Below are positions 1 to 63,644 of a stretch of DNA of 64,000 nt, one piece after another; position 1 is the first letter of the stretch, and every line of letters begins with the position of its first letter. Source of the stretch: Eledone cirrhosa (taxonomy: Eukaryota); NCBI GenBank assembly GCA_964016885.1, contig OZ024741.1:322834001-322898000 (forward strand), read 5' to 3'. Under the pieces are notes generated by a model, which saw only the letters and a list, made by a program, of their open reading frames with translations, made no database searches and had not been told where the DNA came from. Both the position numbers and the translations under genes were made by a program.

Positions 1-290
1 TTACCCGTTTCGCAGTTCTTCTGCTTTTCAAAAGGTGTGTTGAGATGGAGGGTCTGTGGTTTTTCTCACATCTGGTTGAAAAGCCTTCGTGAGCCACCTT
101 TTTTTAAAGTAAAGAAATTCAAACACACACACACACACGCACACACACACACAAGCACACAAATAAACACAGATATCTTTACTTTCTTTATTCAATAGAA
201 AATCTGAATTCTGACACCCCAGCGAACTAACCATATTCACTGAACCAGAACAATTCTCCCATCCCTTTCTCTTGACCATTATCTTTCACT

Positions 291-461
291 TATCGGTAGA
301 GGGTTGGACGCCATGCTTTCCAGCATAGTTACGTCCCTTTACGATCTGAGTTCAAATCCCGCCGAGGTTGACTTTGCCTTTCATCCTTAGGGGGTCGATA
401 AAATAAAGTACCAGTAATGTACTGGATAATTGCTGGCCTTGTGCCTAAAGTAGAAACAATT
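291..461 (+). mobile_element. tRNA-derived SINE (Meta-domain type), 5'-truncated, with TSD
   Basis: B-box-like GAGTTCAAATCC, central GCCTTTCATCCTT..GGGGTCGATAAAATAAAGTACCAG, tail GTAGAAACAATT. Flanking direct repeat ATTATCTTTCACTTATC. About 18 copies in the window. Confidence 0.85.
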
Positions 462-851
462 ATCTTTCACTTATCAAAAAATTCTCTAAAAAGGCTACAG
501 AATGGTTTCCAAATAAGGGCACAAAAAATTAATGAAAATTTGTTCACGTGACAGCCATAATTTCATTTATAACCAACCAAAAAAAAGCCTTCGTGAGCCT
601 CCTTTTTTCAAGTAAAAAGAAATTCAAACACTCATATATGAAAAAACAACCTGCGACAAGCCCCCCCCCCCCTCTTTTTTGAAGCACTATTGTAACGCGA
701 ACTGGCGCGAAATTTATTATAATTATTGACAAACCAATCAAATTACTTCTCGAAAAACCTGGCATTTCGAGCCACTTTTTCCATATAAAACAAGTAACAT
801 TCAGAGACCAACCAGATGTGAGAAAAACCACAGACCCTCCATCTCAACTCA

Positions 852-889
852 CCTTTTGAAAAGCAGAAGAACTGCGAAACCGGTAAAGG
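852..889 (+). ncRNA. Type I hammerhead ribozyme, U3-A8 core variant (family A)
   Basis: CCTT-TTGAAAA-GCAG aagaa CTGC-GAAA-CCGG-TA-AAGG: stem I 4 bp, stem II 4 bp, palindromic stem III. Inverted copy at 1-35. Confidence 0.7.
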
Positions 890-1325
890 AACCAAATAAA
901 TATATATATTTAAAAAAAAAAAAATAAGACTCCAGTTGCATTTTCGATTTAATCTCTTTTTCTTTATATATATATATATATATATATATATATATATATA
1001 TATATATATATATATATATAAGTTAAAAAAATGAAAACGAAATTTCATTTCTCACTCTTAGTATGGCACTTACTTAAATGTAAGTATGTATGTATACGTA
1101 CATACATATATGTATACAGACGTACAGTAGCATGCATATATATATATATATATATATATATATATGCATACAGGTACACATACATATATGCACGCATCAG
1201 TTTAGCCGACGTTTATTATAACGTCTGCTTTGTTCGTTTGTTTGTCAACAAATCGAACAGCCTGAATTTATGCCATACGGTGTTAAGGCAACCACGTCAC
1301 CTTTTTGTTCAACACTGACACAGGA

Positions 1326-1368
1326 ACGATGTACAAGTTTCAAGCTTATTAGCTATCATCAGCACCGT
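1326..1368 (-). ncRNA. Type I hammerhead ribozyme (family B)
   Basis: ACGGTG-CTGATGA-TAGCT aata AGCTT-GAAA-CTTG-TA-CATCGT. Confidence 0.85.
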
Positions 1369-1699
1369 TTACCCATCTGCCAGATAGTTGAACGTTCGAA
1401 AGTATATACTTTCCTTATGAAAATTAACGGCTGAGCAGCCTAATTTGCATATTGAGTGAGTTAAATCGGTCAGGCATACCGAAAACGATAAGTTGAAAAA
1501 AATACATACATACTTACATTTAAGTAAGTGCCATACTAAGAGTGAGAAATGAAATTTCGTTTTCATTTTTTTCAACTTATCGTTTTCGGTATGCCTGACC
1601 GATTTAACTCACTCAATATGCAAATTAGGCTGCTCAGCCGTTAATTTTCATAAGGAAAGTACATACTTTCGAACGTTCAACTATCTGGCAGATGGGTAA

Positions 1700-1742
1700 A
1701 CAGTGCTGATGATAGCTAACAAGCTTGAAACTAGTACATCGT
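1700..1742 (+). ncRNA. Type I hammerhead ribozyme (family B)
   Basis: ACAGTG-CTGATGA-TAGCT aaca AGCTT-GAAA-CTAG-TA-CATCGT; palindromic ACTAGT stem III. Confidence 0.85.
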
Positions 1743-2124
1743 TCCTGTGTCAGTGTTGAACAAAAAGGTGACGTGGTTGCCTTAACACCGTATAGCATAA
1801 ATTCAGGCTGTTCGATTTGTTGACAAACAAACGAACAAAGCAGACGTTATAATAAACGTCGGCTAAACTGATGCGTGCATATATGTATGTGTACCTGTAT
1901 GCATATATGTATATATATATATATATATATATATATATATATATATATATATATATATATATATATATATATATATGCATGCTACTGTACGTCTGTATAC
2001 ATATATGTATGTACGTATACATACATACTTATATATATATATATATATATATATATATATATATATATATTCAAATAACAGATTAAAGTTTAAGCAAAGA
2101 ATCGCTGCTTTCACCCCTAACGGG

Positions 2125-2175
2125 AGTTTCAGAAGATCCCGTTAAGGGTGAAAGCAGCGATTCTTTGCTTAAACT
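2125..2175 (+). ncRNA. Type I hammerhead, U4A variant (family C)
   Basis: AGTTT-CAGAAGA-TCCC gttaa GGGT-GAAA-GCA gcgattctt TGC-TT-AAACT. Lies in a fold-back element ~2071-2290 between (TA)n tracts. Confidence 0.7.
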
Positions 2176-60500: not shown

Positions 60501-60774
60501 CTCGTTGATTATTAGCTGAGTTGTGGCATCCTAAAGAAGCAACTGTCGTCTGGGCTGGTCCATCTTCTGGGTTTTGAGTCCCACCGTGGGATGGAGAAAG
60601 AGCGTGGGTAGCCACTGGTTTTTAACACCCAGCGGTACTGTTTGATGAAGCGTCACAGCATCTGTCGCGTATGGGCGCAGTTTCACTGTTTATGTACTCA
60701 CTTATCGAGTTGTACTCACTTATCGAGGAGAGCAGATTTGTAGTGGATGAAAAGGTCTCTGCAGTAGAAATAGG

Positions 60775-60925
60775 AGGGGAAAATCGATTAAATCGACTCC
60801 AGTTTGTCACTGGTACTTTATTTTATCGACCCCATAAGAATGAAAGGCAAAGCTAACCTTGGCGGGATTTGAATACAAACGTAAAGACCCATAACTTAAT
60901 GCCGCAAAGCATGTTCTCCGATACT
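60775..60925 (-). mobile_element. Degenerate Meta-type SINE
   Basis: Homology. Confidence 0.7.
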
Positions 60926-61900
60926 ACAACAACAACAACTACAACTGCAACGGCGATAACAGCAGTAGCAACAACAACAAAAGAAATAAGGACAACAATA
61001 TCATCATCATTAACTATAACAACACCAGCATCAACATGACCAAAAATAGCTACAACTGAAACAGCAACAACGCCGTCAAAATTAACAGCAAGAACTGCAT
61101 TATCATCATCAACAACTATGTTTAAAGCATAAAGTCGTGGTGGGAATTCCGTGTTTAAACTTGAGGCAATTAATGGCAGAACTTAAAATGTGAACGTAAG
61201 GATGGCTTGCTGAGTGGTTAAGAGGTTCGCTTCGCAAATATTCATTGTCGAAACTGACAGAGGTCCAAGACATGTTTCTTACAATCAGAGGATTGGATTC
61301 AAGTTTCTAATTAATATAGCTATTTGATTAGAGTCCACTTACCTCCGTTTGTTTGGAATATTATCAATTTGCCAAAATGGAATATGTCATTTCATCCTTC
61401 ATTTTGAGAAAACTTCACACAAATGTGTGCAATGACATTTTTGCTGGATCAAAGAATGCCTTGACATTTTGTCTTTAAAAATTAAACTGTTGTTTGAATT
61501 TTTCACCACAACATTCTTCATTTTTTAAATTGATAACACTCTGTCTTTGTTCACATGTACATCCACACACATACATGCATACGTACATATATGAATCTGT
61601 AAGAGGGATAGTGGAAATATGCAAACTGTTCTAAAGTTCAACCTATGGCACTCACCATTTCAACAATTGATAATTTTTCTTTGTTAGAAATCAGCTTCTA
61701 GTTTTCCGGAGAAATTCAATAAAGGAAAAAGAAATAAAATTACATGTACGTGTATATATAAATATGAGTCCCAGATTCAGCCGGAGTGATCAGACTAAGT
61801 AAGGTACTCAATACATTAAGTGTATACATCAAATTTAATATAGAAATAGCTTCTACAGGGCTAGAAATGTTTTATTCGAAGGAAATCAGCAGGAAAGCCA

Positions 61901-61935
61901 CTGATGATTTACTTCGAATGAAACAGTTCTAATCC
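61901..61935 (+). ncRNA. Decayed hammerhead core in a small fold-back
   Basis: CTGATGA-TTT acttcg AAT-GAAA-CAGTT; a relative near 19915 reads GAAA-CAGTTG-TA. Stem I not formed. Confidence 0.4.
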
Positions 61936-61969
61936 TGTAGAAGCCGTTTCTATAAATTTGTTATATATT

Positions 61970-62445
61970 CAGATTTACATTTCTTTTATTCAGCCATGTA
62001 GAGCGATACAACTATTTGTTAGTCATTTGACTATACCAAAGCCGGCCATTAATCTCTCGTGTACTTACTGACCTATCCGCTGATATGCAAATCTGGCTAA
62101 TCAGTGGGTCTGCTAATATGCAGATCTGACTAATCAAACAGTCTACTAATATGCAAATCAGGCCGATCAGTCACTGTATATTCCAGAAAATATATTTTTT
62201 CACTAGCTCTGACAGTTGGCAGGTAAACAATATAGAGTATTGATGAAGGGTAATACCCAGAAACATTAGTGTCTGTCGTTCTGTTTCTATGCCAACCCAA
62301 CAGCTAGAATGGTGGGATCATTCTACTCACATTACTTAAGAGGCTGTTTGCATAATTGCTAACGAAACGAATATTATTATTAATATTCGAACAAGTCAGA
62401 TTTACATTTCTTGTATTCAGCCATGTAGAGCGATAAAACTATTTG
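61970..62445 (+). mobile_element. Terminally redundant 427-nt HHR unit (family P)
   Basis: 61970-62018 is repeated at 62397-62445; homologous to 55398-56445. Confidence 0.8.
62234..62279 (+). ncRNA. Type I hammerhead (family P), partly decayed
   Basis: AGAGTA-TTGATGA-AGGG taata CCCA-GAAA-CATTAGTG-TC-TGTCGT. Confidence 0.6.
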
Positions 62446-62863
62446 GTGTGTGTGTGTGTGTGTGTGTGTGTGTGTGTGTGTGTGTGTGTGTGTGTGTGTG
62501 TGTGTGTGTGTGCGCAGTTTCCCTTTCGAGGGTGGGGGATCCCTAGTCTGGGATACGACGTGCAGCGACTCGTTTTCTGCCTCTAACCGGACTCGGTTGC
62601 CCACAATGCAGAAGAGAGTAGAATAATAAGATAATCAATACTGAGATCTGACCAACCGCTTCTCTTTATACCGAACTTCAACGAAACGGCTGTCATCCTT
62701 AATATTATGTATATATATATGTATATATATATATATATGTATGTATAGAATAAGGAAAAGCGAAGTAGTTTCAGTTGTTCAAGTCCTTTAATAATAATGC
62801 TGTGATATATATTTCAATGGCGACACTGTCGCCATTGAAATATATATCACAGCATTATTATTA

Positions 62864-63030
62864 TAGAGGGTCGGACGCCATGCTTTCCAGCGTAGTTACG
62901 TCCCTTTACGATCTAAGTTCAAATCCCGCCGAGGTTGACTTTGCCTTTCATCCTTACGGGGTCGATAAAATAAAGTACCAGTAATGCACTGGGTAATTGC
63001 TGGCCTTGTGCCTAAAGTAGAAACAATTAT
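62864..63030 (+). mobile_element. Meta-type SINE inside fold-back 62748-63120
   Basis: Homology; tail duplicated at ~63044-63075. Confidence 0.88.
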
Positions 63031-63644
63031 TATTAAAGGACATCTGGCCTTGTGCCAAATGTAGGAACAATTATTATTAAAGGACTTGAACATCTGAAAC
63101 TACTTCGCTTTTCCTTATTCGATATTTACTCCGTCACTCCTATGTGGAAAAAGTACGTTGAGTGCTTGATTTGAATTGCATCAACGTTTACCCTAATATA
63201 TGTATGTATATATATATGTATGTATATATGTATGTATATATATATATGTATGTGTATATATATATATATATATATATATATGTATGTGTATATATATATA
63301 TATATATATATATATATATGTATATGTATATATGTATATGTATATATATATATGTATGTATATATATATATGTATGTATATATATATATGTATATATATA
63401 TATATATATGTATATATGTATATATATATATGTATATATGTATATATATATATATATGTATATATATATATATGTATATATATATATATGTATGTATATA
63501 TATATATATGTATATATGTATGTATATATATATATATGTATATATGTATATATATATATATGTATATATATATATGTATGTATATGTATATATATATATG
63601 TATGTATATATATATATATATATATATGTATGTATATATATATG

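Follow-up and report, generated by a model that had tools for sequence, protein, structure and literature searches.

Type I hammerhead ribozymes between TA repeats of Eledone cirrhosa and their links to Penelope-like elements and retrozyme-like units

In a 64-kb stretch of Eledone cirrhosa DNA (hereafter the window; contig OZ024741.1), type I hammerheads most likely ride in the 3' pseudo-LTRs of many families of endonuclease (EN)-bearing Penelope-like elements (PLEs), mostly of the Hydra type, as well as in short tandem units that code for nothing, and their accumulation between TA repeats is put down to probable insertion into (TA)n and 3'-end copying that leaves short stumps. We assign this reading a probability of about 85%. 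PLE hammerheads, TA targeting by the Hydra clade and animal retrozymes have each been published; new here are the host, the scale, the dominance of the Hydra type and a retrozyme unit that bears its own TA target.

Hammerhead motifs in the window and in the genome

A structural descriptor search of both strands yielded 20 type I hammerheads at a score of at least 20, compared to a mean of 0.2 (maximum 1) in 40 local dinucleotide shuffles and two in the reversed window. A stricter descriptor gave nine perfect-core matches versus none in 20 shuffles and none in the reversed window. The first descriptor was relaxed and tuned on the window; the independent test consisted of 59 unselected 10-kb genome stretches, in which 86 motifs were found (0.8 in shuffles, none reversed). 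The anticipated excess over shuffled DNA was thus present in the window and in independent DNA. The Rfam hammerhead models, which had been suggested as a check, gave no window match at the gathering score and none at E<=10 at the two sites queried. This silence, the relaxed, window-tuned descriptor and the two reversed matches would fit chance matches in AT-rich, hairpin-rich repeat DNA, but the counts in independent DNA, the covariation described below and the constant position behind PLE open reading frames (ORFs) make this explanation negligible. The controls reject it for the bulk of the motifs, while single low-scoring matches may still be due to chance. The motifs are real hammerheads of type I (core CUGANGA...GAAA...UH plus stems I to III).

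The first-pass annotation had listed 22 motifs, 17 of which parse where they were placed (ten CUGANGA cores, one U3-A8 swap, four U4C and two U4A), whereas five (17266, 42356, 52122, 55704 and 62234) fail the descriptor, yet are worn or atypical copies of multi-copy hammerhead families. Five more sites were added, three of them parsing (28193, 40399 and 54351, minus strand) and two worn (13874 and 61901, plus strand). The listed sites represent 12 families, and 17 once the additions are counted. A density of one hammerhead per 3 kb applies to the window (20 in 64 kb), but the genome average is about half that. The statement that most short TA-bounded islands contain a motif was not borne out: listed sites lie in only 18 of 55 such islands free of low complexity (about a third), listed and added sites together in 22.

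The sampled density of about one motif per 7 kb extrapolates to ~4x10^5 hammerheads in the genome (bootstrap 2.7-6.4x10^5; ~1.5x10^5 with the strict descriptor), which is predicted to exceed the largest published count that we found (axolotl, 126,247). The core is canonical in 70 of the 86 sampled motifs. Forty belong to EN-linked families (30 Hydra-type, 10 CCHH-type) and 46 to families without an EN link in the sampled DNA; 17 of the latter are members of the retrozyme family, and the remainder may have unsampled parents or be further non-autonomous units. A same-strand partner within 1 kb is present for 19 motifs, 15 of them inside one array, and an inverted partner is likewise present for 19 of the 86.

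Judged by the passages considered from Cervera and De la Pena (2014, PMC4209133), these motifs share with metazoan PLE pseudo-LTR hammerheads the type I fold, the palindromic stem III, the U3-A8 variant, an additional nucleotide following position 9, inverted pairs at distances of 100-700 nt, a prevalence of solitary copies of truncated PLEs and many families per genome. They differ by their estimated number (about 9,000 in X. tropicalis and 4,000 in coelacanth), by positions 10.1-11.1, where U.U (34/86) and A-U (19/86) leave G10.1-C11.1 a minority, by a 6-10-nt palindrome in most motifs instead of the minimal core, by stem II domains of up to ~100 nt, and by U4C, U4A and U4G cores fixed across whole families.

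Covariation in family alignments had also been expected. In a 45-copy alignment of one family, 94.3% of stem cells are paired (36-57% in slid controls) and 70 cells show double-sided change versus 23.6 in shuffles, in line with this expectation, although the members were selected by a descriptor that demands pairing and kinship among copies inflates the covariation counts. The palindromic stem III is 100% paired, and 10 copies carry A-U/G-C swaps in it, as would follow from pairing of the palindrome with a second copy; the proposed palindromic stem III is thereby supported. Stems II and III covary and stem I varies one-sidedly; two of five covariation measures failed to beat shuffles (92/500 and 490/500).

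Penelope-like elements as the source

For 14 of the 22 listed sites, the family occurs elsewhere in the genome 0.4-1.6 kb behind a same-strand, continuous PLE reverse transcriptase (RT)-EN ORF, mostly of the Hydra type. Given that their families follow such ORFs, these 14 sites are interpreted as 5'-truncated, often inverted PLE ends. The other eight sites lack this link, four of them lying in retrozyme-like units and four being unlinked. PLE-linked features of the window are:

1-964 (+): 3' end of a 5'-truncated Neptune-like PLE (CX2-5CxxC linker, GxKF, DKG and CCHH-type GIY-YIG motifs in locus L080); 461-964 shares 93.5% identity with the 3' UTR that follows the RT-EN ORF in L081, 1-78 is an inverted copy of 809-886, and a SINE-like insert lies at about 290-460
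852-889 (+): hammerhead with the U3-A8 variant of the core, a stem II closed by G-C and a 6-nt palindrome as stem III, cleavage being predicted after 885; 0.8-1.4 kb behind an EN ORF in nine copies (89-97% identity)
2123-2177 (+): U4A-core hammerhead whose stem III is a hairpin, at the tip of a Hydra-type PLE (island 2070-2285, which includes an inverted 5' piece); family 983 nt behind Hydra-type EN in L084
4470-4534 (+): hammerhead, canonical core, covariation, tip of a Hydra-type PLE, 96% to L180/L181, where the hammerhead lies 1.5-1.6 kb behind a Hydra-type RT-EN ORF; most abundant family (20/86 sampled motifs)
9396-9516 (-): hammerhead with a U4C core and a stem II domain of ~96 nt, at a Hydra-type PLE end, parsed by the descriptor, inverted pair with 9676; family with 13 links to Hydra-type EN 0.4-0.6 kb upstream
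9676-9797 (+): hammerhead, 9396 family (descriptor, family match)
16381-16500 (+): hammerhead, 9396 Hydra-type family (descriptor, family match)
19259-19321 (-): hammerhead with a canonical core from a subfamily within the 4470 group, tied to PLEs through family clustering only
38975-39039 (+): hammerhead, 4470 group, compensatory stem II change, Hydra-type PLE end, 88.7% to L194, where it lies 1.6 kb behind Hydra-type EN
42356-42451 (+): worn hammerhead with a hairpin stem III of 5 bp, at the end of a Hydra-type PLE; 5/20 family loci have Hydra-type EN 0.7-0.9 kb upstream; 0/20 parse, the family showing by eye a U3-A8 core, a bulge that the descriptor rejects and 5 bp each in stems I and III; the window copy has lost the A8 partner (U3.G8)
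46985-47019 (+): minimal hammerhead with a U4C core, a 4-nt palindrome and one additional nucleotide following position 9, at the end of a PLE of the CCHH type (Penelope/Poseidon or Nematis); it matches at 93-98% sites in L090, L094 and L099 that follow an EN ORF by ~400 nt
52122-52153 (-): classical minimal hammerhead, 2-bp stem I, within island 52043-52957, in the 3' UTR of a Neptune-like PLE of the CCHH type; 2/20 family loci have EN 1.3-1.35 kb upstream and a third shows it weakly; 0/20 parse, with a canonical core but just 2 bp in stem I
55060-55124 (-): hammerhead, inverted 5' copy of the 4470 family (descriptor, family match)
55265-55327 (+): hammerhead, 4470 family, Hydra-type PLE end, 98% to L181
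56737-56787 (-): hammerhead, U4A core, 2123 Hydra-type family (descriptor, family match)

The unlinked sites and those added to the list are:

12687-12724 (-): hammerhead with a canonical core, a stem II of 2 bp following U.U and an 8-nt palindrome, in a tiny insert present in multiple copies; no EN link and no parent found in 25 family loci (11/25 parse)
17266-17308 (+): worn hammerhead of an old palindromic mini-insert family, fails the descriptor; no parent found in 20 family loci, of which six parse, two of these being the same site
55704-55750 (-): worn hammerhead, 62234 family (77% like 62234), A.A at 10.1-11.1, hairpin stem III
62234-62280 (+): worn hammerhead, U3.G8 here, core intact in most family copies; no parent found for the 62234/55704 family in 25 loci (17/25 parse)
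13874-13930 (+): added; worn hammerhead, stem I damaged, family with one Hydra-type link (L322)
28193-28235 (-): added; hammerhead belonging to a PLE of the CCHH type, matching L059/L188 at 94.8% across 562 nt; island 27984-28622 holds an inverted piece as well as the final codons of the EN ORF
40399-40486 (-): added; hammerhead, U4C core, long hairpin stem III, weak Hydra-type link; 12/20 family loci parse
54351-54418 (-): added; hammerhead, 3' flank 75% like that of the 28193 family
61901-61944 (+): added; hammerhead core with stems II and III, stem I lost, common family

The linked ORFs carry RT and GIY-YIG Pfam matches, and clades were assigned by motif alone. The Hydra motifs (CxCx5C, CxxC, CxH, DKT and RW[KR], as defined in the passages considered from Craig et al. 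2021, PMC8557442) were found in an alignment of Hydra-type copies and in L180, L184 and L185: a CxCx5C linker and CxxC/CxH flanking E and N, with no CCHH in EN. Single Hydra-type copies carry one substituted motif position. The N-terminal ORF of L185 has DKT and RWR and no GxKF, and other Hydra-type copies are 5'-truncated. The Neptune motifs of the 852 family (CX2-5CxxC linker, GxKF, DKG and GIY-YIG with two internal cysteines) are present in L080/L081; in some Neptune-like copies a separate ORF of 300-370 aa without a Pfam match lies upstream, and one Neptune-like copy is flanked by (TA)n on both ends.

According to the same passages, the Hydra clade of C-terminal EN+ PLEs likewise combines the CxCx5C linker, the absence of CCHH, CxxC/CxH around the E and N residues, DKT and an RWK-like motif with a 3'-end hammerhead and (TA)n targets. 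It is described there as a small set of families from cnidarians and a few aquatic invertebrates, whereas the Hydra type here supplies at least 30 of the 86 sampled hammerheads and has some long 3' UTRs (1.5 kb). The main-text passages name no octopus Hydra elements, the supplements being outside the scope of this comparison.

Within 300 nt of (TA)5+ we found 62 of 71 motifs versus 34.9 expected from the same loci, which agrees with the proposed TA targeting; the case for this targeting comes from flanks and literature, no empty sites having been seen. The copies bear the PLE insertion signature of 5' truncation, inverted 5' copy, partial tandem and optional 3' tail. Families end at either of two 3' positions (e.g. 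48/138 nt and 81/187 nt beyond the cut site), which matches the 'tail' of PLEs in the passages considered from Frangieh et al. (2024, PMC11167929). The Neptune and Penelope/Poseidon PLEs treated there, including anole PAc, share RT plus C-terminal GIY-YIG with CCHH, AT-rich targets and a 3' tail that may or may not be present, depending on which of two RT start sites is used; the tails here, at about 60-110 nt, exceed theirs (30-40), and some Neptune-like copies add the upstream ORF. The PLE origin put forward in the first-pass annotation is hence upheld by the 14 sites tied to RT-EN ORFs of the same genome. The supposed community of PLE-derived ribozyme elements is indeed PLE-derived, but most members are truncated 3' ends of ordinary autonomous PLEs and not a separate class.

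Retrozyme-like non-coding units

Four of the 22 listed sites lie in non-coding units of 420-480 nt that build retrozyme-like tandem arrays with up to at least 15 hammerheads:

1021-2030: non-coding retrozyme-like element, ~479-nt unit with TA tract, composed of an inverted unit with 3' tail (1021-1501) and a direct unit (1502-2030)
1325-1369 (-): hammerhead, canonical core, U.U at 10.1-11.1, damaged palindrome (descriptor)
1699-1743 (+): hammerhead, canonical core, U.U at 10.1-11.1, palindromic stem III, one private stem I mismatch (descriptor)
34883-35489 (+): non-coding retrozyme-like element, ~467-nt unit after a 146-nt partial copy; hammerhead at 35331-35416 with canonical core, U.U and a 4-bp palindrome with 1-nt centre
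46044-46086 (-): intact hammerhead (both descriptors), retrozyme family, subfamily with a ~420-445-nt unit

The ~479-nt unit forms tandem arrays of 11 and 3+11 units with 98% identity elsewhere, and the 46044 subfamily forms an array in L214; arrays of the 1700/46044 family hold 11, 14 and 15 hammerheads, one of type I per unit. Copies of the 467-nt family consist of a unit plus a variable partial unit, from dimers to ~2.7-mers. The longest ATG ORFs measure 78 aa (1700/46044 family) and 24 aa (35334 family). No EN link was present in 92 matches of the ~479-nt unit or in 25 of the 35334 family, and no autonomous parent was matched by sequence. Computed folds indicate highly self-paired unit RNAs, with z=-10.4 for the ~479-nt unit, partly owing to a TA-rich hairpin, and z=-6.0 for the ~467-nt unit. 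By their non-coding tandem units and self-pairing, both families would fit non-LTR retrozymes; the unit size of 420-480 nt lies slightly above the published 170-400 nt, a range that is descriptive rather than a strict limit.

The passages considered on animal non-LTR retrozymes (Cervera and de la Pena 2020, PMC7229834; Li, Clavereau and Pollet 2026, bioRxiv 10.64898/2026.07.22.740005) likewise describe tandem units that are non-coding and low in GC, each containing a single type I hammerhead, with high self-pairing, monomers to multimers and co-occurrence with PLEs. Apart from size, the units here differ in that one has an internal TA tract, that insertions show PLE inversion, tail and TA flanks, and that they are known from DNA alone.

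The tandem units could instead be satellite-like arrays grown at the DNA level from orphan PLE pseudo-LTRs, by unequal crossover or slippage at the inner TA tract, with no RNA circle stage and the hammerheads as passengers. Units inside an array are nearly identical, the spacing in L214 is irregular and of higher order, and local amplification of PLE termini is named in the passages considered from the 2026 preprint. However, arrays and single copies on different chromosomes are 98% identical, arrays bear inverted 5' parts and alternative 3' tails as fresh PLE insertions do, the 467-nt copies add a variable partial unit, both units fold far better than shuffles, and subfamilies retain the core while stem I changes in pairs. 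We therefore regard DNA-level growth as unlikely, though worth weighing.

Proposed mechanism and activity

By analogy with published PLE work, the EN would nick TA DNA, and reverse transcription, initiated 3' of the hammerhead at either of two internal sites, would usually stop early or invert. Likely insertion into (TA)n with copying from the 3' end would account for the pile-up between TA repeats, and since copying starts at this end most copies would be short stumps keeping little but the ribozyme. The 420-480-nt units may be retrozymes that borrow PLE machinery: dimeric hammerheads would cleave the transcripts of arrays to give unit RNAs, which are probably circularised and copied into more-than-unit insertions. 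The internal TA tract of the 479-nt unit would provide it with a target of its own, and by self-insertion the unit could extend into arrays.

It is also conceivable that the host retains hammerheads to cut introns or non-coding transcripts, so that their density reflects selection on the host. The very high density would imply many copies in transcribed DNA, and the 3-9-bp hairpin stems III of some families could, as modelled, work as monomers. Yet genomic copies decay (only 11/25, 12/20, 17/25 and 6/20 family loci parse), conservation lies between subfamily masters, as selection on the element predicts, and no host gene was found within the 64-kb window, which makes a host role very improbable.

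Returning to the hammerheads as parts of PLEs and retrozyme-like units, stem III of the monomer has only 0-2 bp in 16 of the 20 window motifs, and most solitary stumps whose stem III is purely palindromic are predicted to be inactive. Hammerheads of published PLEs cleave weakly or depend on protein. In the one PLE assayed with purified protein, according to the passages considered from PMC11167929, hammerhead cleavage needed the protein and was dispensable for insertion. The earlier expectation of cleavage as dimers is narrowed here: as solitary copies prevail, only tandem arrays are expected to cleave in cis as dimers. The predicted active dimer lies within 1.4 (852) and 0.2 (46044) kcal/mol of the dimer minimum, and 5-14 kcal/mol above it for several motifs, e.g. 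1699, 12687 and 46985.

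Hammerhead motifs in the window and in the genome

The first-pass annotation had listed 22 hammerhead sites in the window, and 17 of these were parsed by a type I descriptor (stem I, core, stem II, GAAA, palindromic or hairpin stem III and UH, with known variants allowed), while the remaining five belong to hammerhead families as worn or atypical copies. The descriptor matched the window 20 times, compared with 0.2 times in local dinucleotide shuffles and twice in the reversed sequence, a control that preserves all hairpins and repeats; five further window sites were absent from the list. 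A first, stricter descriptor had given just 5-6 window matches because the U.U closing pair and core variants were disallowed. Since the descriptor had been tuned on the window, it was also applied to 59 independent stretches of 10 kb from 16 large contigs, chosen by round-number position (589.8 kb in total), where 86 matches were obtained in comparison to 0.8 in shuffled and 0 in reversed sequence, and 31 of the 59 stretches held at least one. The predicted excess of motifs over dinucleotide-shuffled sequence was thus confirmed in the window and in the independent stretches. The statement that most TA-bounded islands hold a hammerhead was too strong, as 18-22 of 55 islands do. An Rfam scan of the window gave only low-complexity miRNA noise among the best 150 of 362 matches, and no hammerhead at gathering score.

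The sampled density of one motif per 6.9 kb corresponds to about 4.3x10^5 motifs genome-wide (2.7-6.4x10^5 by bootstrap over stretches), from a sample of large, placed contigs in which small chromosomes are somewhat over-represented. Without one stretch that is an array with 15 matches the estimate is 3.6x10^5, and a strict count (canonical cores, paired 10.1-11.1, short stem II) yields 1.5x10^5. At least 66 hammerhead families were found in 350 sequences (about 1.5% of a thousandth-scale sampling). Published counts are 126,247 for axolotl, more than 6,000 for coral and about 5,000 for mussel (figures from the text of PMC7229834), and about 9,000 for X. tropicalis and 4,000 for coelacanth (likewise PMC4209133). 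The 235 Rfam hammerhead matches of the giant squid are the sole cephalopod count found in the literature searched. Our estimate is three times the number for axolotl, whose genome is some ten times as large as this one; comparison with all of these counts is indicative only given that descriptors differ.

In the commonest family, whose 45 aligned copies were picked by a pairing descriptor, 94.3% of cells are paired (36-57% in slid controls) and both-sided change occurs in 70 cells, compared with 23.6 in shuffles. The 8-nt stem III palindrome is paired in 45/45 copies, ten of which have switched from A-U to G-C, and this covariation fits pairing from copy to copy because a loopless four-pair stem is impossible within one strand. 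Changes in stem I are one-sided only, and two of five covariation measures were no better than shuffles. Judged from the alignment, the hammerhead structure is under selection between subfamilies. The U.U closing pair, present in 34 of 86 sampled motifs, and U4C are natural variants known from the text of PMC3088659, and U3-A8 is already known in schistosome Penelope-like elements (PLEs). Together the families offer a ready-made natural collection of core variants (U.U closing pair, U4C/A/G, U3-A8, 100-nt stem II) on which cleavage could be tested at high throughput. A long-stem-II Hydra hammerhead subfamily at two other loci (L196:4517-4636 and L197:5335-5454) carries the canonical CUGANGA, not U4C, and offers a natural counterpart for testing the U4C variant.

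Penelope-like elements as carriers

A genome-wide search for GIY-YIG endonucleases (EN) yielded 10,597 candidates, of which 150 were scored, and the longest, once extended, proved to be PLE-type ORFs of reverse transcriptase (RT) and EN. In the window itself the sole tblastn match of PLE ORFs is a short EN remnant at 60195-60472 (-), 45-60% identical to locus L090, and the links between motifs and PLEs were therefore drawn from other loci. Sites and families are named here by motif start in the window. In nine copies the 852 motif is found 0.8-1.4 kb behind a Neptune-like ORF; one of these copies has (TA)n at both boundaries, and window 461-964 shows 93.5% identity to the 3' UTR of a Neptune-like PLE. 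The 46985, 28193 and 52122 families stand behind other CCHH-type ENs, and the 9396/9676/16381, 2125/56737, 4470/38975/55060/55264 and 42356 families behind ORFs with Hydra-clade motifs as listed in the text of PMC8557442; in these latter ORFs Pfam gave no GIY-YIG recognition. Site 19263 joins the 4470 group through clustering. A further link for this group, at locus L182, runs across a TA tract and was left out of the evidence.

The attribution of the motifs to PLEs thus held for 14 of the 22 listed sites, which are PLE ends according to linked families elsewhere in the genome. The search for a parent ORF was negative for the 12687 family (0 links in 13 matches), the 17266 family and the 62234 family (none in 25 matches, one of them cut off by a TA tract). 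Among sampled motifs 30/86 are Hydra-linked, 10/86 CCHH-linked and 46/86 unlinked, making the little-known Hydra clade the main hammerhead source here. Over 1,100 proteins of Hydra-type PLEs matched at E<=1e-20, nearly all of them from ENA/Logan/JGI assemblies, and to judge by these the distribution of the clade seems much wider than was apparent when it was first described.

Copies share a fixed 3' end, often in two alternative forms, and differ at the 5' end, where an inverted piece is frequent. A fixed 3' and a variable, inverted 5' end are the PLE insertion pattern in the account of PMC8557442, and two internal RT start sites are offered as an explanation in that of PMC11167929. (TA)5+ lay within 300 nt of 62 of 71 motifs (34.9 expected), and Hydra elements are reported to insert into (TA)n. 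Some Neptune-like copies carry a separate 300-370-aa ORF upstream of the RT-EN ORF, coiled-coil-like by eye:

Upstream ORFs of Neptune-like PLEs, without Pfam match
L092:6306-7415 (-)
L093:2570-3469 (+)

The hammerheads of the window are real and dense, and they belong to kinds already published, namely PLE pseudo-LTR hammerheads (treated in PMC4209133), TA-targeting Hydra and Neptune PLEs (in PMC8557442) and animal retrozymes. New relative to the literature searched are the scale and the host. No paper on octopus hammerheads was found there; Lunse et al. 2017 and paper supplements, outside the search, may list cephalopod variants or PLEs. Because Rfam misses these hammerheads and the main text of a curated repeat annotation of O. 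vulgaris from 2026 (PMC13282606) contains neither "ribozyme" nor "hammerhead", some cephalopod "unclassified SINE" or unknown repeats may be PLE ends.

Retrozyme-like families and their possible mobilisation

PLEs are known to nick AT-rich DNA, to start reverse transcription internally and to leave truncated and inverted copies, and cleavage by their hammerheads is weak, dimer-dependent or protein-assisted. The solitary stumps would be mostly inert leftovers of PLE insertion, since a stem III of at most 2 bp is all that 16 of the 20 window motifs can form alone and most have no same-strand partner.

Two families are free of ORFs. The 1326/1700/46044 family (0 ORF links in 92 matches) has one hammerhead and one internal TA tract per unit; arrays of 11 and of 3+11 copies of the 479-nt 1700 unit are 98% identical from one chromosome to another, and a subfamily of about 421 nt filled one random 10-kb stretch. 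Among contigs from four runs, of unknown kind, the 1700 family was abundant in two (organism A), present in two contigs of the third and absent from the fourth, a pattern that bears on neither expression nor range. The 35334 family (0 ORF links in 25 matches) usually comprises one unit of about 467 nt and a variable partial unit; a tail of about 110 nt or an inverted piece is sometimes present as well. Both the 479-nt and the 467-nt unit fold far better than shuffles.

The 1700 and 35334 families match the DNA-level definition of non-LTR retrozymes as worded in PMC7229834 and bioRxiv 2026.07.22.740005. Autonomous PLEs and ORF-free retrozymes coexist in this genome with the same insertion marks (TA flanks, inversions, tails), so that the question of who mobilises animal retrozymes becomes directly testable. 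Arrays would cleave as dimers into unit circles to be copied by PLE RT, and where a unit contains a TA tract, it could become a target for its own insertion. The chief alternative to this route is growth of the arrays at the DNA level, with no RNA circle. We tentatively propose, at a probability of roughly one in three, that no animal genome described so far is as dense in hammerheads as this octopod genome (about 145 motifs/Mb, several hundred thousand), a density driven by a large Hydra-clade expansion, and that it hosts a young retrozyme with its own (TA)n target, homing into itself via PLE proteins and giving abundant circular RNA. If true, no natural example of retrozyme mobilisation by PLEs would be clearer. 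A likely further retrozyme family outside the window (L202:246-1235) shows 467-nt spacing, an inverted 5' copy and a G-C closing pair.

Genomic setting of the window

The window (G000:C2:322,834,001-322,898,000 in the 3.0-Gb assembly) contains LINE RT remnants, a Helitron and simple repeats; no host gene was found in it.

Other features of the window
6368-8467 (+), broken non-LTR retrotransposon with RVT_1 (RT) match; by eye also a restriction-like endonuclease region at the C terminus
29400-34036 (+), Helitron Rep-helicase, almost complete, spread over several frames; matches to Helitron_like_N and PIF1
58894-59418 (-), second helicase fragment
40800-40870, tRNA-like, sole Rfam match at gathering score
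22700-24180, 26340-27150, 35900-38140, minisatellite arrays, repeated peptides in long open frames
291-463, 15666-15856, 18701-18886, 19937-20088, 22240-22428, 27820-27958, 44630-44820, 51005-51193, 51730-51920, 54845-55030, 55460-55646, 62864-63035, SINE-like copies of about 185 nt

The minisatellite arrays are probably non-coding despite their open frames. The SINE-like repeat has at least 12 window copies, several sitting within PLE stumps. The host is probably an octopod: the common SINE of this genome is octopus-like in appearance, and the best named relatives of one PLE protein from this genome are from Argonauta hians.
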